A stretch of 64,000 nucleotides of DNA from Nitrospirota bacterium (GTDB lineage: Bacteria; Nitrospirota; Nitrospiria; 2-01-FULL-66-17), in NCBI GenBank assembly GCA_049325295.1, contig JBMOMD010000043.1:11578-75577 (forward strand), read 5' to 3'. How positions within the stretch are numbered: the first letter of the stretch is position 1; each line of letters opens with the position of its first letter. Under the pieces are notes generated by a model. It did not search any database. It saw only the letters and a list, made by a program, of their open reading frames with translations, and had not been told where the DNA came from. Shown here piece after piece: positions 1,069-45,469 of the stretch. The position numbers and the translations under genes are program-made.

Positions 1069-1864
1069 CGTGGGCCGCGCCCCCGCGTCGGTAGCGGCCG
1101 TTCCGTCGGGCGACACGCTGTCGGCGGTGGGACTGGAAAAAACCTTTCGGCGCCGCCGCGTGGTCAAGGGCGTATCCGTCACGATCAGGCCGGGGGAGGT
1201 CGTGGGGCTGTTGGGACCGAACGGCGCGGGCAAAACCACGGTCTTCAACATGATCGTGGGGCTCATCACGCCCGATCGGGGCGACATCGTGTTGAACGGC
1301 CGCTCGATCACCGCGTTGCCCATGCACCAGCGCGCGCGTCTTGGGTTGAGTTACCTGCCGCAGGAAGCCTCGGTGTTCCGCAAACTCACCGTGGCCGAGA
1401 ATATCCTGGCGATCCTGGAAACGCTGCCGATGCGGCGGGAAGAGCAGCGGGCGCGGTTGGAAGAACTGCTCGAAGAGCTGGGGGTGGCGCACCTGGCCGA
1501 GCAAAAGGGGTATACGCTGTCGGGCGGCGAGCGGCGTCGGGTCGAGATCGCCCGGGCGTTGGTTTTGTCGCCGCGGTTCGTGCTGTTGGACGAGCCGTTC
1601 GCCGGGATCGATCCCTTGGCGGTCGCCGACGTGCAAAAGGTCGTGGCGCACTTGCGCGACCGCGGCATCGGCGTGTTGATCACGGATCACAACGTGCGCG
1701 AAACGCTGGAAATCACCCGGCGGGCGTATATTATTAACAGCGGCGAGATTCTCCAGGAGGGCACGCCCGTGGAAATCGCGGAAAGCCCCCGGGTTCGCTC
1801 GCTGTATCTGGGCGAGCATTTCGCCTGGCAACGATCCTCAGCCGGCCAGGAGGCCAATCGGTGA
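1058..1864 (+). CDS. lptB: LPS export ABC transporter ATP-binding protein LptB
   Basis: Walker [10 protein letters not shown] and ABC signature [15 protein letters not shown]. Stop overlaps the rpoN GTG start (GTGA). Confidence 0.9.
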
Positions 1865-3327
1865 GACCGCGTTTGGAGCTGCGGCTCCAACAAAAGCTGG
1901 TCATGACGCCGCAGTTGCAGCAGGCGATCCGCCTGTTGCAGCTTTCCCGATTGGAATTGAGTCAGACCGTCTCGCACGAGCTGATGGAAAATCCGGTGCT
2001 GGAGGACGAGCTGTCGCAGGAAGGGCCCGAGGAGGAGGCCCCGAGCGGGGACGAGTCGCCCGCCGTGAAGACCGAGGCCGACGCCGAGGCGTCCGCGCCG
2101 GAGGCCAAGGAAAGCGCCGAGCTCGATCCGCAGGAGTTCAACTGGGACAGCTATTTCGACCAGGATGACTTCGGCCTGTCCGGAGACGGCGACTACGCCA
2201 GGGCGTCGTCCGAGGACATGCCGTCGTTCGAACAGACGCTCAGCAAGGCCGTGTCGCTGGAAGAGCACTTGTTGTGGCAATTGCGCCTGTCGAGCGTGCC
2301 GGAGGAGGACCGGCGGGTGGCGGAAGCGATCATCGGGAACGTGGACGACGACGGGTACTTGCGGGTCACGCTCGATGAGATCGCGCACAGCCTGAACTGC
2401 CCGGCGGCGACCGTGGAGCGGGCGCTCAAGTTGGTGCAAGGTTTCGACCCGCTCGGCGTGGCCGCGCGCGACCTCCGGGAGTGTTTGTTGATTCAGACTC
2501 GTCAGCTCGGGTTGCACGGCTCGCTCGTGGAATCGATCATCACCCACCACTTGCCGGACCTGGAAAAGAAGCGGTTCGCCGCGATCGCCAAGGCGTTGGG
2601 GGCGACGGCGGAAGAGGTGTTTCACGCCGCCAAGGTGATCGAACACCTGGAACCGAAACCGGGGCGGCCGTTCGCCGTGTCCGACAACGTCTACATCACG
2701 CCGGACGTGTTCGTGGTCAAGATCGAGGGCAAATACGCGGTCCTGCTCAACGACGACGGCATGCCGAAATTGCGGATCAACCAGTATTACCGTCGTCTGC
2801 TCAAGAACAAGACGCCGGGCGTGGACACCACCAAGACGTATCTCGAAGACAAATTGCGGTCCGCGTTGTGGCTGATCCGCAGCATCGAGCAGCGCAACCG
2901 CACGATCGTGCGCGTGGCCGAGAGCATCGTGAAGTTCCAGTACGAGTTCATGGAACAGGGCATCAACTATCTCAAGCCGTTGATCCTCAAGCAGGTCGCG
3001 GAGGACATCGGGATGCACGAGTCCACCATCAGCCGCGTGACCACGAATAAGTACATGTATACGCCGCAGGGGATCTTCGAGCTAAAGTTTTTCTTTAATA
3101 GCGGAATCGCCCGCACCCAGGGCGGCGGCGAGGACTTGTCCTCGGTCACGGTGCGCGAGCGCATCCGGCTGTTGGTGGCGAACGAAGATCCGCGACGCCC
3201 CATGACCGACCACGAGTTGGTGGAACGCTTGTCGGCCGAGCAAATCGCCATTGCCCGGCGGACCGTGGCCAAGTACCGCGGGTGGCTGCGCATACCGCCC
3301 GCGAACAAACGCAAACGCGTATTCTAA
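1861..3327 (+). CDS. rpoN: RNA polymerase sigma-54 factor RpoN
   Basis: Full-length sigma-54 with the C-terminal RpoN box (ARRTVAKYR). Conserved position after lptB. Confidence 0.92.
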
Positions 3328-3516
3328 GGAGCCTGTCCATGAATGGCCATCTGCGGCGTTGTCAGTCGGTCTTGCGTGCTCACGGTTTTCGTAGGGGCGT
3401 ATTGCAATACGCCCCTACAGGCGCGCAAGACCTCCTTCCGCCTTGCGACCCACCTTTAAGAAATGAGGTGGCGGAAGTCCCCGAAGGGGGCATCTGGCCA
3501 TCCCTGAACAGGCTCC
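3328..3516 (+). repeat. Structured inverted-repeat element, copy 1 (189 bp). Carries an extra internal insert with the 28-bp perfect palindrome GTAGGGGCGTATTGCAATACGCCCCTAC.
   Basis: Starts 1 nt after the rpoN stop. Terminal arms GGAGCCTGTCCATGAATGGCCATCTGC and GCATCTGGCCATCCCTGAACAGGCTCC are inverted. Same family as the copies at 6205, 38042 and 45346. Confidence 0.7.
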
Positions 3517-3620
3517 GGTATCACAATACTCGGACACATTATATAAATTAAGATGCCCGGAAGGGATTTCCGGGTGGTTGACGCGAGAGTTTGATAACGG
3601 AAAAAGGAGAGGACGGCGCC

Positions 3621-4136
3621 ATGAAGACGACGGTCACAGGGCGGCACATTGAGATCACCCCGGCGCTGCGCGCCCACGTGGAAGAACGCGTTGAGCATCT
3701 GACGCGGTTTTCCGGAGACGTGGCGGACGCCACGGTCGTGCTCTCGGTCGAGAAGTACCGCCATCAGGCCGAAGTGTCGTTGAACGTCAACGGCGTGTTG
3801 ATCCAGGCCAAGGAAGAAACGTCCGAAATGTACGCGTCGATCGACGAGGCCGTGGCCAAGATCGAGCGCCAACTGAAAAAATACAAGGATCGTCAACACA
3901 CCCGTCGTCAGCGTCCCGCGGCGATCATCGGCGAGACGGAACCCGTCGAGTCCGCGCCGGAACCGCTGGAGCGCGAGCGGCCGAAACTTCGGTCCATGAC
4001 GCCGGAGCAGGCGTCCGCGGCGTTGGACGGTGGGGAGACGCCGGTGCTCGTATTTCGTCACGCGGGCACCAAGGAGACCAACGTGGTGTATCGACGGGCC
4101 GACGGTTCCGTGGCATGGATCGACCCCGCGCCGTAG
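3621..4136 (+). CDS. hpf: Ribosome hibernation promoting factor (long HPF / sigma-54 modulation protein)
   Basis: MKTTVTGRHIEITPALR... is a typical HPF/RaiA N-terminus. RBS AGGAGAGG precedes the ATG at 3621. The longer ORF-track start at 3591 is rejected. Confidence 0.85.
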   Translation: MKTTVTGRHIEITPALRAHVEERVEHLTRFSGDVADATVVLSVEKYRHQAEVSLNVNGVLIQAKEETSEMYASIDEAVAKIERQLKKYKDRQHTRRQRPAAIIGETEPVESAPEPLERERPKLRSMTPEQASAALDGGETPVLVFRHAGTKETNVVYRRADGSVAWIDPAP

Positions 4137-5047
4137 CCGAACCCGACGCGCCCAAGCAGGGGGCTCGGCCGGCGGGCGCGAGCGGTCCCCGCATCGTCAT
4201 CGTCAGCGGGCTGTCGGGCGCGGGCAAGAGCCACGTGCTGCACTGTTTCGAGGACGTGGGGTTCTTTTGCGTCGACAACCTGCCCCCGCCGCTCATCCCC
4301 ACGTTCGTGCATTTGTACACCCACGGCGAACCCAAGAACCACCGCATCGCGCTCGGGATCGACATCCGCGGCCGGGAATTTCTCTCGCAAAGCTTCACCG
4401 CGATCGAGCAGCTCAGGCAGGCGGGGTATCGCGTCGAGATGTTGTTCTTGGACGCGCGCGACGACGTGCTCATCCGCCGGTTCTCGGAGACCCGGCGTCC
4501 GCACCCCTTGGCGCACTCGCGGCCCGTGATCGAGGGCATCACGCAGGAACGGGAAGAGCTCCGCGAGCTCCGCGCCCGCGCCGATCTCATCATCGACACG
4601 TCCGATTATTCGGTCCACCAACTCAAGGCGTTCATCGCGCAGCGCTACGTGGAGCGCCGGCACGGTCTGGCCGTGACCGTCATCTCGTTCGGGTACAAGT
4701 TCGGCGTGCCGCGCGAAGCGGACCTGGTCTTCGACGTGCGGTTCCTCAAAAATCCCAACTTCGTGGAAACGCTCCGGCCGCTGTCGGGACAAGACCACGC
4801 GGTGGCGGACTACGTCATGGGCCAGCCCGAAACCGAGGGGTTCCTCACGCGGCTGGAAGGGTTGCTCGAATATTTGTGGCCGTTGTACGAGGCCGAGGGG
4901 CGCACCTATCTGACCATCGCGTTGGGGTGCACGGGCGGCCGGCACCGCTCGGTCGCGTTGGTGGAACGACTGGCCGCGTTGTTGGGCCAGCGCGGGCTGC
5001 AGCCGACCGTCCAACACCGGGACATCGACCGGCACATCGGGAGCTGA
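4115..5047 (+). CDS. rapZ: RNase adapter protein RapZ (P-loop ATPase, YvcJ/YhbJ family)
   Basis: P-loop GLSGAGKS. Conserved position after rpoN-hpf. The exact start is uncertain; ATG 4115 overlaps the hpf 3' end. Confidence 0.8.
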   Translation: MDRPRAVAEPDAPKQGARPAGASGPRIVIVSGLSGAGKSHVLHCFEDVGFFCVDNLPPPLIPTFVHLYTHGEPKNHRIALGIDIRGREFLSQSFTAIEQLRQAGYRVEMLFLDARDDVLIRRFSETRRPHPLAHSRPVIEGITQEREELRELRARADLIIDTSDYSVHQLKAFIAQRYVERRHGLAVTVISFGYKFGVPREADLVFDVRFLKNPNFVETLRPLSGQDHAVADYVMGQPETEGFLTRLEGLLEYLWPLYEAEGRTYLTIALGCTGGRHRSVALVERLAALLGQRGLQPTVQHRDIDRHIGS

Positions 5048-6204: not shown

Positions 6205-6326
6205 CAGGCTGCTGAAAAAGTCCATCTGCTGCGTTGCCGCTGCGCATCCGCTGCTCACGTACGACCCAGTACGCTGCGCTGCGGTGCTCGCGGCTGCCTT
6301 GCATCTGGAGCTTTTTGAGCAGCCTG
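6205..6326 (+). repeat. Structured inverted-repeat element, copy 2 (122 bp)
   Basis: Starts 3 nt after the TAG stop of the 5666..6202 gene. Arms CAGGCTGCTGAAAAAGTCCATCTGC and GCATCTGGAGCTTTTTGAGCAGCCTG. Core shared with copies 3 and 4. Confidence 0.7.
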
Positions 6327-16256: not shown

Positions 16257-17258
16257 ATGACTGAGCGCATCGCTATTGCCGGTGTCTCCGAGCGAGACGT
16301 AGATCTTCTATTGTTGGAGGAGTTTCAGTCTTCCAGCGACTTTCAAGGCTGGTTTGTACGAGAAGCGTTCGGCCCCGACGTTGACTTTGGGCAGTGCACT
16401 GGAGCAAGACGATCAATCACGAACTCTACGGGCGAATCGGATCTCGAGATCTTCTTTGCGAACTCCAAAGGTGAGAAGACCCGGCTCTTGATAGAGAACA
16501 AGGTAAACGCCGGTTTTCAACCACTTCAGGCTGAGCGGTACAAGGAGCGAGGGCTGGGCTACGTTTCTACAGCCCAATGCAACTCCTTTCGAACGGTACT
16601 CATAGCTCCAGCTCGCTACTTCGGTGAATCGGCTTCCCGCAAGGGTTTCGATGGGCGCGTTTCGTATGAGCAGATTCTTCGTTGGTTCGGAGAAGCGGTG
16701 CAACTCGGCGAGAGGCGTCAATACAAAGTCGCATTACTAAGGTCGGCCATTGACAAGGGCACGCTCGGGTACCAACCAGAAGAAGACAAGCCGACAACAG
16801 CGTTTTGGAAGGCGTACTGGCGCTTCGCGCTCGATCGGGCTCCCGAGCTTGAAATGCCGGAGCCCAGTGCAAAACCATCCCGCTCCAGCTTTGTCCATTT
16901 CAGGCCCCGTACTCTGCCGCGCTCGGTAGACATCGTCCACAAGTTCGCATTCGGTCACGTTGATCTGCATTTGCGCGGCATGGGCAAACGTCTTAACGAG
17001 GTGCGCGTTGCCGTGCGACCTTATCTGGCTCCTGCCATGACTGTCGCGGCGGCAGCGAAATCAGCGGCGATACGTATCGAAGTCCCGAAACTACGCGTCA
17101 CGGCGCCATTTGAGGCGCAAACACCAGAGGCAGAACTTGCCCTCGATGCAGCAAAGCGGTTGCACGTATGGTTTATCGACAGCAACGATTTCGCTACGTG
17201 GTTGGTTGGCGCCCAACAATCGGTTGCAGGCGACGCGCCGCGAGCGGCACGTGCCTGA
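16257..17258 (+). CDS. Cassette-encoded PD-(D/E)xK nuclease-superfamily protein of unknown function
   Basis: ~52% GC against a ~67% background. Motif GESDLEIFF...LLIENK (D...ExK) with upstream E/D residues. No RBS, which is common for cassettes. Bounded by GTTGGGC cores. Confidence 0.6.
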   Translation: MTERIAIAGVSERDVDLLLLEEFQSSSDFQGWFVREAFGPDVDFGQCTGARRSITNSTGESDLEIFFANSKGEKTRLLIENKVNAGFQPLQAERYKERGLGYVSTAQCNSFRTVLIAPARYFGESASRKGFDGRVSYEQILRWFGEAVQLGERRQYKVALLRSAIDKGTLGYQPEEDKPTTAFWKAYWRFALDRAPELEMPEPSAKPSRSSFVHFRPRTLPRSVDIVHKFAFGHVDLHLRGMGKRLNEVRVAVRPYLAPAMTVAAAAKSAAIRIEVPKLRVTAPFEAQTPEAELALDAAKRLHVWFIDSNDFATWLVGAQQSVAGDAPRAARA

Positions 17259-17273
17259 ACCGAAGCGTTGGGC
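17211..17273 (+). other. attC recombination site of cassette 1 (63 bp)
   Basis: GCCCAACAATCGGTTGCAGGCGACGCGCCGCGAGCGGCACGTGCCTGAACCGAAGCGTTGGGC. R''=GCCCAAC and R'=GTTGGGC, with imperfectly complementary L arms and bulged bases. Strongly resembles aadA-type attC, recalled from memory. Confidence 0.65.
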
Positions 17274-17290
17274 GCCATAACAGAAGAACC

Positions 17291-17644
17291 ATGAACGTTC
17301 GCATTGCGACAACCGATTCCGAGATTGCCATCTGCTATCCAGTAATGCGGGAGCTTCGTCCGCACATCGCGGAAGAGCGATTTCTCTCCCGGATCCGGAG
17401 TCAAGAAGGTGCAGGCTATCGGCTCGCCTATGTGCAAGAACCAAATGGCGTAGTTGCGGTTGCTGGATTCCGAGTCGGTGAGAATCTGGCTTGGGGGCGT
17501 TTTCTGTACGTCGATGATCTTGTAACCCTTCCCGCACACCGATCAAAGGGCTATGGTGCCAAGTTGCTTTCGTGGCTCAAAGAACAAGCCGCAAAGGAAG
17601 GTTGTGAGTGCTTGGTCCGGGGTCGGACCCGCGCAATGTGTTGA
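17291..17644 (+). pseudogene. GNAT family N-acetyltransferase, 3'-truncated by insertion of the RAYT/IS element
   Basis: GNAT motif A (HRSKGYGAKLL) is present. The protein ends 9 aa after GCECL, with the beta5-beta7 region missing. The sequence diverges exactly where the element's inverted repeat begins (17614). ~53% GC. Confidence 0.55.
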
Positions 17645-18551
17645 AAAGTCATCCGCCTTTGGGCACAATGAGGCCGCTGGAGGTCTTGGATCGCACGTTG
17701 TAGAGCCAAAACTACGCTGCAGGGAGGAAGCGTCATGCCGCGCGCCCATCGCTATTTTCTTCCCCATCACATCTGGCACATCACGCACCGGTGTCATCAA
17801 CGGGCGTTTCTCCTGAAGTTCGCGCGTGACCGCCGGCGCTGGCGGCAGTGGCTGTTTGAGGCCACGAAGCGGTTTCGGCTGTGTGTGCTCAATTACGTCG
17901 TCACGTCCAACCATATTCATCTCTTGGTCCGGGATCAGGGGCGAGGCGAGATCGCGCGCGCGATGCAGCTCATCGCGGGACGCACGGCCCAGGAATACAA
18001 TCAACGCAAAGGGCGACAGGGAGCGTTCTGGGAGGATCGGTATCATGCCACGGCGGTCGACACGGAGAGCTACCTGGCCCGCTGTCTGGTCTACATTGAT
18101 CTGAACATGGTGCGGGCGGGCGCCGTGGCGCACCCGCGTGACTGGGACGCGGGCGGCTATCACGAGCTGCATGCGCCACCCACGCGGTACGCGATCATCG
18201 ATCAGCCGGCGCTCACCGAGTTGCTCGGCCTGAAGAGTCTCCAGCAACTACAGGAGACTCACGCGCTGTGGATCGAGGAGGCGATCCGGGCGGGAGGTGG
18301 ACCACGCGATCCGATGTGGACCGAGAGCGTGGCGGTCGGCCGCGCCGAGTTCGTGCGAGATGTCCAGGTCGAGCTGGGGAGCAAGGCGCGATATCGGGAG
18401 GTCGTGGCCGAAGGACAGGCGCACGTGCTGCGCGAACCGCCGACCCTCTACGGGGCATTTTGACGGGCAAAAGGCCGCGCGAAGGGCTCAACCGTCCGCC
18501 GTGGCGGACCAAAACCTCGAGACATCAATCGATTGCGCTGGTCCGACCCCG
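17614..18551 (+). mobile_element. RAYT / IS200-IS605-like element bounded by 12-bp inverted repeats CGGGGTCGGACC (17618-17629) and GGTCCGACCCCG (18540-18551)
   Basis: Left end GGTCCGGGGTCGGACC is itself a hairpin. A second GTCCGCC-gt-GGCGGAC hairpin sits at 18494-18509. Inserted inside cassette 2. Confidence 0.5.
17735..18463 (+). CDS. Y1 HUH transposase, REP-associated tyrosine transposase (RAYT / IS200-like TnpA), 242 aa
   Basis: HUH motif SNHIHLLV and the catalytic-Y helix VYIDLNMVRAGAV (YIxxNPVRAGLV-like). N-terminus HIWHITHRCHQRAFLL matches the Transposase_17 family. Confidence 0.75.
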   Translation: MPRAHRYFLPHHIWHITHRCHQRAFLLKFARDRRRWRQWLFEATKRFRLCVLNYVVTSNHIHLLVRDQGRGEIARAMQLIAGRTAQEYNQRKGRQGAFWEDRYHATAVDTESYLARCLVYIDLNMVRAGAVAHPRDWDAGGYHELHAPPTRYAIIDQPALTELLGLKSLQQLQETHALWIEEAIRAGGGPRDPMWTESVAVGRAEFVRDVQVELGSKARYREVVAEGQAHVLREPPTLYGAF

Positions 18552-26018: not shown

Positions 26019-26043
26019 CGTCATTGCGATAATCTGACTCCCC

Positions 26044-26078
26044 AGGCGCCGAAGCGTTGCTTCGGCGCCTGTTGTATT
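26044..26078 (+). terminator. Rho-independent-like terminator AGGCGCCGAAGC-gttg-CTTCGGCGCCT followed by GTTGTATT
   Basis: 11-12 bp perfect stem, 26 nt after the ADH-fusion stop. Confidence 0.6.
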
Positions 26079-27998: not shown

Positions 27999-28030
27999 GG
28001 CCGTCTCTGCGATCAACGTCAGAGACGGCC
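27999..28030. terminator. Hairpin GGCCGTCTCTG-N10-CAGAGACGGCC between convergent genes
   Basis: 11-bp perfect stem 20 nt after the stop at 27979. No clear U tract. Confidence 0.4.
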
Positions 28031-29266: not shown

Positions 29267-29343
29267 GCCCCCGTAGCTCAGTTGGATAGAGCAGCGGTTT
29301 CCTAAACCGCGTGTCGGCCGTTCAATTCGGCCCGGGGGCACCA
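29267..29343 (+). tRNA. tRNA-Arg (anticodon CCT), CCA encoded
   Basis: Cloverleaf: acceptor GCCCCCG/CGGGGGC, D-arm GCTC...GAGC, anticodon stem GCGGT/ACCGC with loop TTCCTAA, T-arm GGCCG-TTCAATT-CGGCC. 77 nt. Confidence 0.88.
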
Positions 29344-38041: not shown

Positions 38042-38166
38042 GAGCCCGTTCGGGAAAGGGCCATCTGCGGCGTTGGCGCTGCGCTTCCGCTCCTCACGTA
38101 CGCACTCCGTACGCTCCGGTGCGGTTCTCGCGCCGCCTTGCATCTGGACCTTTCCTGAACGGGCTC
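38042..38166 (+). repeat. Structured inverted-repeat element, copy 3 (125 bp), located between pyrR and pyrB
   Basis: Starts 1 nt after the pyrR TGA. Arms GAGCCCGTTCGGGAAAGGGCCATCTGC and GCATCTGGACCTTTCCTGAACGGGCTC. Confidence 0.7.
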
Positions 38167-38192
38167 CGTCGTATGGTCAGGTGGAAAGGCTC

Positions 38193-45345: not shown

Positions 45346-45469
45346 GGAGCCTGTCCATGAGCGGCCATCTGCAGCGTTGTCGCTGCGCTTCCGGTCCTCA
45401 CGTACGACCCAGTACGCTCCGGTCCGGTGCTCGCTCCGCCTTGCATCTGACCGCTCCTGAACAGGCTCC
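45346..45469 (+). repeat. Structured inverted-repeat element, copy 4 (124 bp)
   Basis: Starts 4 nt after the greA TAA. Arms GGAGCCTGTCCATGAGCGGCCATCTGC and GCATCTGACCGCTCCTGAACAGGCTCC. Confidence 0.7.

Follow-up and report, generated by a model that had tools for sequence, protein, structure and literature searches.

A probable double-foot REP of the subclass 2.4 type on the apex of a separate mobile hairpin behind rpoN in a Nitrospirota bacterium

Repetitive extragenic palindromes (REPs) are short stem-loop sequences of 20–40 nt, reported near the 3′ ends of upstream open reading frames (ORFs) and associated with Y1 transposases known as REP-associated tyrosine transposases (RAYTs) or TnpA_REP. 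The REPs of the double-foot type have been defined as those with a 5′ GT[AG]G and a 3′ C[TC]AC (Quentin et al., 2018, PMC6006769). For the TnpA_REP subclass 2.4, Table S1 of the same work gives double-foot REPs, among them GTAGGGGCAATTCATGAATTGCCCCTAC and GTAGGGGCGAAAAATTTTTCGCCCCTAC, that measure 28 nt and form a 12-bp stem closed by a 4-nt loop, and it also gives the single-foot GTAGGGGCGTATTGCATACGCCC. This subclass corresponds to the RAYT group 4 of Bertels et al. (2017), which was found in 61 species of 17 classes (PMC5581495). The presence of REPs inside long palindromes has already been reported as well (Di Nocera et al., 2013, PMC3733652). The subject of this article is a 28-bp palindrome located between rpoN and hpf in a Nitrospirota bacterium (assembly GCA_049325295.1, contig JBMOMD010000043.1, positions 11,578 to 75,577; this whole stretch of 64,000 nucleotides is hereafter called the window). 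An original prediction, made from the letters alone, had considered it REP-like because of its GTAG and CTAC heads and had related it to a putative RAYT gene of the same window. The analysis presented here indicates, with a probability of about 0.8, that the 28-mer belongs to the double-foot REPs of subclass 2.4 and is carried on the apex of a separate mobile hairpin, that it has no dedicated regulatory role at this locus, and that the Y1 gene of the window is probably not its mobiliser.

The sequence GTAGGGGCGTATTGCAATACGCCCCTAC (3391–3418) is a perfect palindrome of 14 + 14 nucleotides, just as and where the original prediction had placed it, and the window contains no longer perfect palindrome. 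The GTAG foot (3391–3394) and its complement CTAC (3415–3418) are both included in a 12-bp stem closed by a 4-nt loop, which agrees with the definition of a double-foot REP, and the predicted energy of the hairpin as RNA is −20.5 kcal/mol, as is appropriate for a short stem-loop palindrome of this kind. The palindrome is intergenic and lies 63 nt past the rpoN stop codon, within an element that abuts this codon, a position that suits the extragenic, 3′-end location of REPs. Its head, GTAGGGGC, appears 105 times in the Table S1 file mentioned above, and both the format and the head of the window 28-mer match that table. Given this coincidence of format and head, the window palindrome represents a new allele of a documented class; judged from its sequence, the REP identity of the palindrome is right. 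In the full text of the literature, no relevant paper prints the exact sequences, the class being documented only in the supplementary table.

Copies of the 28-mer were sought in other genomes with the query GTAGGGGCGTAT-N4-ATACGCCCCTAC, in which both stems had to be exact and only the 4-nt loop was free; the counts given here are those among the matches listed. Matches came from 10 viral contigs and from more than 119 genome loci, the latter distributed over at least 18 phylum-level groups: Cyanobacteria, Planctomycetota, Chloroflexota, three groups of the candidate phyla radiation (CPR), Omnitrophota, Nitrospirota, Nitrospinota, Bacteroidota and relatives, Ignavibacteriota, Atribacterota, Zixibacteria, Sumerlaeota, Calditrichota, Margulisbacteria, Firestonebacteria, WOR-3, FCPU426, and Deltaproteobacteria. 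In the 129 fetched loci the 28-mer occurs 140 times, and in 79 of these occurrences the loop is TGCA, identical to that of the window copy. At least 13 assemblies contribute two or more loci each, and some of them hold at least three to four copies. The GC content of the loci ranges from 0.32 to 0.69, their flanks are unrelated, and the boundaries of the conserved segment are sharp at 28 bp. An immediate palindromic extension of at least 5 bp is seen in 7 of the 132 distinct copies, where about 0.13 would be expected by the calculation made for this analysis.

Several of these copies deserve a separate description. At six loci (L104:1095, L016:1966, L091:5797, L090:1607, L106:768, and L068:1803; loci outside the window are designated by L numbers) the 28-mer lies in frame within apparently intact genes, to which it adds about 10 residues (VGAYCNTPL or RGVLQYAPT). 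These genes, by reading of their translations, are presumably carB, lgt, a DNA methylase gene, a cobU-like kinase gene, an aminoacyl-tRNA synthetase-like gene, and a gene with a secretion-signal domain. When the carB of the window is compared with that of L104, the insertion falls in a linker of variable length, its exact boundaries not being definable. From the point of view of annotation, the 28-mer and its relatives are a recurrent source of spurious peptides (VGAYCNTPL, RGVLQYAPT), and they also lengthen genes by real insertions of 10 residues. In cyanobacterial metagenome-assembled genomes (MAGs; L032, L064, L105, L109, L034, and L066) the 28-mer is found inside another inverted-repeat element, GACATCTCCAGAAATGAT...REP...AATTAATTTTCCCAGATGTC, which constitutes a second, unrelated case of a REP in a longer palindromic repeat. 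A sequencing-adapter artefact was considered and rejected, given that isolate genomes also contain the palindrome and that its flanks are consistent among many independent assemblies.

The link of the 28-mer with a transposase comes from these other genomes. Seven loci have it as an in-frame part of a Y1 transposase gene, immediately behind the HUH-bearing strand, and at L038 it is placed 11 nt downstream of such a gene. The REP-carrying genes read ...VMPNHIHGIVIIA-RRGVLQYAPT-...SPSQTIGAIVRGFKS...WQRNYYEH...YIxNNP, with the motif MPNH[ILF]HG, that is, they carry the motifs of the TnpA_REP subclass 2.4 (RAYT group 4), and the flanking or in-frame position typical of the double-foot REPs of this subclass is seen for the 28-mer outside the window. 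Pairwise identities among the seven encoded proteins are only 46–64%, and their translations of the palindrome use two different frames. A match to these Y1 genes was obtained in 10 of the 129 loci (each of about 14 kb or less), one of them being weak. In this sense, the REP-like character attributed to the palindrome on account of its heads can be extended to a class of REPs tied to REP-associated Y1 transposases.

In the window, the palindrome forms the apex of one long branched hairpin of 189 nt (3328–3516), with its start 1 nt past the stop codon of rpoN (TAA, 3325–3327). The minimum free energy of this region folded as RNA is −105.4 kcal/mol, compared with −70.4 ± 4.7 kcal/mol for its shuffled versions (z = −7.4), and folding as DNA gives z = −5.9; the spacer is, as had been predicted, a highly structured region of about 190 nt. 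The complementary segments that had been noticed around the palindrome are also real: GGTCTTGCGTGC (3368–3379) and GCGCGCAAGACC (3421–3432) form 11 Watson–Crick pairs and one G–T pair, and CCACCT (3450–3455) is complementary to AGGTGG (3466–3471). A further mini-hairpin, CCCC-GAA-GGGG, is found at 3479–3489. In silico, the presence of the REP in place of the ordinary tip changes the folding energy from −88.8 to −104 kcal/mol, a gain of about 15 kcal/mol.

This hairpin belongs to a repeat family, here called the host repeat, with four copies in the window, all of them on the forward strand (Table 1). The copies are hairpins of about 125 nt (−61 to −74 kcal/mol) with variable outer stems, two conserved and non-complementary cores, CCATCTGCNGCGTTG and GCCTTGCATCTGG, both of which contain CATCTG in direct orientation, and an ordinary small tip, CTCACGTACGACCCAGTACGCTCC. 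Copy 1, the one behind rpoN, differs at two places: its tip is changed to GGTTTTC, the 28-mer, and AG, and a piece of 45 nt splits its 3′ core. The description of copy 1 as the carrier of an extra insert holds with respect to the three other copies of the window and to the orthologous copies in relatives, with the correction that, strictly, the usual tip of 19 nt (GTACGACACAGTACGCTCC in L134) has been replaced instead of interrupted by a clean insertion. In all four copies the start lies 0–4 nt past the stop codon (TAA, TAG, or TGA) of an upstream gene in the same orientation. The same placement is found outside the window: 80 of the 115 fetched host copies have an ORF end within 60 nt upstream (ORFs of at least 80 codons, or at least 30 if cut by the contig end), and the distance from the stop codon to the core is sharply peaked at 16–19 nt, with each of the three stop codons represented. 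For the host repeat, neither an Rfam family nor a paper was found. A search of viral contigs with the 14-base core gave 120 matches, all of them attributable to chance; two had a loosely matching 3′ core, neither of which was element-like.

The combination of host and REP is recurrent. In a scan of metagenome contigs for the host 5′ core followed by GTAGGGGC within 15–45 nt, at least 120 contigs were obtained, while about two were expected by chance according to the estimate made here. Most of these matches correspond to a lower-GC relative of the host (GATGGTTTCGTAAAAAGTCCATCTGC...) whose apex is either a REP or an inverted REP doublet. In three of them (L170, L208, and L227; a fourth, L142, is cut off), the host is of the Nitrospirota type and carries the linker GGTTCTC...AG and the identical 28-mer; these composites are 93–95% identical to positions 3322–3446 of the window, follow unrelated genes, and lack the 45-nt insert. 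The appearance of the same composite at three unrelated loci indicates that the REP-tipped hosts form a subfamily propagated as a whole. Two further types of junction (L225/L182/L173 and L168/L213) are found in host copies whose REP is another one, GTAGGGGCGGGTTTCAAACCCGCCCCTAC, and the different allele and junctions at the host apex indicate that REPs have been acquired there repeatedly. The suggestion that the REP is nested inside a repeat element, in the manner of the mosaics known as bacterial interspersed mosaic elements (BIMEs), is thus sustained both by the alignment of the host copies and by the recurrent composites.

The lower-GC relative of the host can be described in its own right. 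It is very abundant in freshwater and sediment metagenomes (L137–L256), with the form TGATGGTTTCGTAAAAAGTCCATCTGCGGCGTTGCGC...GCGCGCCTTGCATCTGGAGCTTTTTACGAAACCATC, and its apex is an inverted REP doublet, GTAGGGGCGGCTCGCCGAGCCGCCC...GGGCAACCCGGCGGGTTGCCCCTAC, behind which a second REP-doublet module frequently appears. Many different loci carry almost identical copies of this relative.

The history of the locus was approached by alignment of six related rpoN–hpf spacers with that of the window, whose Hpf is 100% identical to the database entry P0001 (an NCBI Nitrospirota MAG). In L133 (Hpf 87% identical to that of the window) the spacer is empty and measures 59 nt, as it is in L135/L136 (84%), with 68 nt. 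The host element with its ordinary tip is present in L131/L132 (91%) and in L134 (86%), the latter with the same inner arms as the window (…GCTTGCGTGCTCAC|GTACGACACAGTACGCTCC|GCGCGCAAGGCCTCCTTCC…). L130 (88%) has in common with the window the left arm and the 45-nt insert, and its apex begins as an ordinary tip and continues as a different expansion. The palindrome is in none of the six related spacers. Since the site is empty in some relatives and filled in others, none of which has the palindrome, the host behaves as a mobile insertion that is either present or absent, and the REP tip is the latest, lineage-specific layer. One single locus thus provides a clean natural series: empty site, host hairpin, host with extra inserts, and host with a REP tip. 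The pattern of shared arms among the relatives is not in line with the similarity of their Hpf proteins, which suggests a turnover by gene conversion or by repeated insertion.

As for the inserts themselves, the 45-nt piece (3447–3491) can be compared with L130:3864–3926, where the first mini-hairpin has another sequence (CCTTCGAGAACTCGGATG against CCACCTTTAAGAAATGAGGTGG) and is still able to form a hairpin; the expansion at the apex of L130 is of about 70 nt. The rpoN–hpf spacer seems to pile up nested hairpins.

Three other explanations of the palindrome can be weighed against this evidence. It might have arisen in place, by chance or by template switching in the hairpin, with a coincidental likeness to REPs, or it might be an assembly artefact. 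Hairpin regions are indeed prone to replication errors that generate palindromes, and the apex region varies between orthologues. Nevertheless, the 28-mer is identical at 28 of 28 positions to 79 copies in other phyla, none of 100 shuffles gave a match at three mismatches, and the same junction of host and REP is found in three independent metagenome assemblies, so that this explanation is effectively refuted; the unrelated flanks and sharp edges of the copies spread across phyla lead to the same conclusion. A local REP/RAYT system, in which the palindrome is mobilised by the RAYT-like Y1 transposase gene of the window (17735–18463), is tempting at first sight: the encoded protein has a Y1_Tnp domain, its best NCBIfam match is the REP-associated tyrosine transposase, and the GTAG head is typical of RAYT substrates. 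However, the score of this NCBIfam match is 69.3, below the 80-bit cut-off, and the 242-residue protein, with its motifs NHIH, FWEDRY, and YIDLN, resembles, by comparison of motifs with the published table and not by phylogeny, the subclass 2.1 (RAYT group 1), which was described with 238 residues, the motifs NHVH or NH[YF]H, W[EQ], and YIELNP, and for which no REPs were found (Quentin et al., 2018, PMC6006769). By its motifs, it is probably not of the subclass tied to the REP type of the 28-mer. The gene is provided with its own inverted repeats of 27 nt, unrelated to the palindrome, and neither REP copies nor a GTAG palindrome flank it, as they would in a REPtron. No second copy of the 28-mer is found in the window with up to three mismatches, and neither strand has another hairpin headed by GT[AG]G whose stem measures 8 bp or more. 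When the REP-bearing subclass 2.4 proteins were searched against the window, no subclass 2.4 gene was found; they matched the Y1 gene only at E = 0.04–7 and otherwise nothing more than the translation of the palindrome itself. The subclass 2.1-like motifs, the terminal inverted repeats (TIRs), and the lack of a palindrome nearby indicate that this gene is probably not the cognate enzyme; from its sequence, it appears to be of a different, TIR-flanked subclass. From the prediction of a RAYT gene, what stands is a Y1 transposase-like gene recognised by Pfam, its REP association falling below the NCBIfam cut-off, and the link between gene and palindrome is not supported: mobilisation by this local gene is very unlikely, and a tempting connection is in this way removed as probably wrong.

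The remaining explanation, which the original prediction had offered as a structured non-coding RNA, is that the structure of about 190 nt is a dedicated cis-regulatory RNA or a small RNA of the rpoN–hpf operon, with the palindrome as a functional stem. Such a role would fit the very stable predicted fold and the location of the structure, in sense orientation between co-oriented genes and only 1 nt away from the rpoN stop codon. It would not be expected, on the other hand, that the site be empty in relatives whose Hpf is 84–87% identical, with spacers of only 59–68 nt, that the palindrome be missing from every related spacer, that the same composite follow unrelated genes, or that three more host copies follow other genes of the window. 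No family was found in Rfam either, with the whole window at the gathering threshold and the spacer at E ≤ 10, the best weak matches having 14–15 bits against cut-offs of 33–80. An intrinsic terminator consists of a GC-rich hairpin and then a T-tract; no terminator-like site was found on the forward strand in 3200–3700, and the spacer hairpin lacks a T-tract and is followed by GGTATCACAATAC. Nothing indicates that the palindrome is dedicated to the regulation of rpoN or hpf, and a dedicated RNA must be regarded as quite improbable in view of the absence of an Rfam family, the empty spacers of relatives, and the same composite at unrelated loci.

Under the preferred reading, a double-foot REP on the apex of a mobile hairpin, the following course of events can be proposed. 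By analogy with the TnpA_REP of E. coli and with IS200/IS605, the cognate enzyme would bind the hairpin extruded from single-stranded DNA, with the GTAG foot as a guide, and the literature leads one to expect that it would cut and rejoin single strands. Since the REP is a perfect palindrome, both strands would offer the same substrate. The tips of hairpins would be single-stranded when extruded and perhaps would constitute favoured landing sites. The host element of about 125 nt inserts directly after stop codons in sense orientation. At the rpoN–hpf spacer it arrived first, and the REP tip came later and in this lineage only; the most likely source of this tip is a host subfamily that bears a REP and spreads as a composite, which either replaced the earlier element or converted it. 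The predicted physical consequence of the REP would be a longer and more stable hairpin behind the rpoN stop codon. Stop-proximal REPs have reportedly been treated by Liang, Rudd and Deutscher in 2015. By analogy with the REPs of E. coli, the spacer hairpin could shield the rpoN message from 3′ exonucleases; it could also reduce the read-through into hpf, make the expression of hpf partly independent of that of rpoN, or hinder termination at the stop codon of rpoN. The existence of close relatives without the element indicates that none of these RNA effects is likely to be essential.

It is important to note that several points weigh against this reading. The requirement of exact stems in the search means that the apparent identity across phyla is partly a matter of ascertainment, and the multi-copy status of the palindrome rests on other genomes, the 64 kb of the window holding one single copy. 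Around 135 copies of the REP, no clear target motif or target duplication was found, apart from a weak excess of pyrimidines at −1 to −3, 5′ of the GTAG; the triplet TTT beside the REP is modestly enriched (35 of 135 copies, compared with 19 of 135 at the control position), which is too little to define a target. The change at the apex of copy 1 is a replacement, from which it follows that a transposition of the REP in situ cannot be shown. No Y1 gene is found near the composites in 703 kb of the metagenome loci that bear them, the subclass given to the window Y1 gene is a motif-based call, and all the effects proposed at the RNA level are deduced.

A bolder interpretation, to be taken as tentative and rather doubtful, is that the 28-mer is an allele of a tiny “frozen” mobile hairpin that travels between phyla together with its enzyme, being carried in frame within the transposase gene itself, and that has repeatedly colonised the single-stranded tip of a second mobile hairpin inserting at stop codons, the composite then spreading as a unit. 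If this were true, these elements would be nested micro-transposons, cooperative or hitch-hiking, and the placement of the host at stop codons would be a targeted or selected property tied to translation termination and not a by-product. Both the exact identity of an allele across many phyla and the recurrence of REP-tipped composites that abut stop codons go somewhat beyond the literature that was found. A REP that crosses phyla and that is embedded both in the gene of its own enzyme and at the tips of hairpins would also be a useful test case for the recognition and spread of substrates by domesticated single-strand transposases.

The features of the window are collected in Table 1. Besides these, two further strong and perfect hairpins, unrelated to the REP, are located at 26043–26071 (a 13-bp stem, CAGGCGCCGAAGC-GTT-GCTTCGGCGCCTG) and at 27999–28030 (an 11-bp stem with a 10-nt loop), and a tRNA gene at 29267–29340 is the sole match to Rfam in the window at the gathering threshold. 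The repeats at both sides of the Y1 gene are 85% complementary and start with CGGGGTCGGACC; the left one overlaps the end of an acetyltransferase-like ORF (17168–17644).

Table 1. Position, strand, and supporting evidence of the palindrome, the host repeat, and the neighbouring features.
Feature	Position	Strand	Evidence and remarks
28-bp palindrome GTAGGGGCGTATTGCAATACGCCCCTAC, double-foot REP by its sequence	3391–3418	both strands read identically	palindrome and hairpin scans, copies in other phyla, format of subclass 2.4 REPs
Host repeat copy 1, 189-nt hairpin	3328–3516	+	folds, alignment to the other copies and to orthologues
Host repeat copy 2, ordinary tip, no REP	6205–6326	+	3 nt after stop codon; outer stem unlike the other three copies
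Host repeat copy 3, ordinary tip, no REP	38042–38167	+	directly after TGA stop codon
Host repeat copy 4, ordinary tip, no REP	45346–45469	+	3 nt after TAA stop codon
Host repeat outside the window	L012:790–950; L130:3733 and 6600; L131; L134; L170; L208; L227
Conserved 5′ core of the host family, CCATCTGCGGCGTTG	3347–3361	+	alignment of copies
Inner stem, left arm, GGTCTTGCGTGCTCA	3368–3382	+	pairs with 3420–3432
Unpaired 7-nt linker GGTTTTC, host arm to REP	3384–3390	+	GGTTCTC in the L170, L208, and L227 composites
Inner stem, right arm, GGCGCGCAAGACC	3420–3432	+	fold
3′ core, first half GCCTTGC	3440–3446	+	split by the 45-nt insert; second half ATCTGG at 3492–3497
Second insert, 45 nt, two mini-hairpins CCACCT/AGGTGG and CCCC/GGGG	3447–3491	+	common only to the relative L130; single in the window
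Host element 3′ tail, GGTATCACAATACTCGGACACATT...AAGA	3517–3553	+	missing at empty sites; conserved as CAATACTCGGACACA in copies at unrelated loci
rpoN (sigma-54), upstream gene, stop codon abuts the hairpin	1861–3327	+	Pfam
hpf (ribosome hibernation factor), downstream gene	3621–4136	+	Pfam
rapZ	4115–5047		Pfam
Left 27-nt inverted repeat of the Y1 gene, CGGGGTCGGACCCGCGCAATGTGTTGA	17618–17644	+	partner at 18525–18551; unrelated to the palindrome
Y1 (HUH) transposase-like gene, 242 aa, subclass 2.1-like motifs	17735–18463	+	Pfam Y1_Tnp, E = 1.4e-12
Right 27-nt inverted repeat of the Y1 gene	18525–18551	−

Among the described systems, the closest are the double-foot REPs of subclass 2.4 (PMC6006769, PMC5581495), with which the window palindrome shares the GTAG and CTAC feet, the length of 28 nt, the 12-bp stem that includes the feet, the 4-nt loop, and the GTAGGGGC head; as in that class, the same 28-mer lies in or next to subclass 2.4 genes elsewhere, and its taxonomic spread is wide and scattered. 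Unlike them, the window allele, with its GTAT-TGCA-ATAC distal stem, is not in Table S1, which contains only its single-foot relative GTAGGGGCGTATTGCATACGCCC, and it sits at the tip of another repeat and not beside a transposase, there being no subclass 2.4 gene in the window. The REPs and BIMEs of E. coli, which belong with TnpA_REP (RAYT group 2, subclass 2.2), also have GTAG-footed hairpins in extragenic positions near the 3′ end of the upstream gene, form mosaics with other conserved motifs, and presumably depend on single-strand cleavage of the Y1/HUH type. Nonetheless, they have one foot, bulged stems, and hundreds of copies and are specific to the species, whereas the 28-mer crosses phyla and has one copy in 64 kb.

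The palindromes of Di Nocera et al. (2013, PMC3733652) likewise have a REP in the centre of a longer, unrelated repeated palindrome, as happens in the window copy and in at least 120 metagenome composites, while the host of the window is distinguished by its length of about 125 nt, its asymmetric cores CCATCTGCNGCGTTG/GCCTTGCATCTGG, its 3′ tail, its position abutting stop codons, and its many copies without REP. In the same work, the TIR-flanked tyrosine transposases (“TIRYT”) have a GGGGWSAS motif that resembles the start of the repeats flanking the window Y1 gene. With the REP doublets forming hairpins (REPINs; Bertels and Rainey, 2011), the similarity consists of two outward GTAG feet, and true REP doublets are found at the same apex in the low-GC relatives of the host; the window element, in contrast, is a single perfect palindrome of 28 bp and not two REPs and a spacer. 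Furthermore, REPIN and RAYT systems are usually described as lineage-specific and vertically inherited, whereas here one exact REP is shared across at least 18 phylum-level groups. Finally, the Rickettsia palindromic elements (RPEs) and the intragenic REPs find their counterpart in the copies of the 28-mer that lie in frame in apparently intact genes of other genomes, with about 10 residues each, the window copy differing from them by being intergenic.

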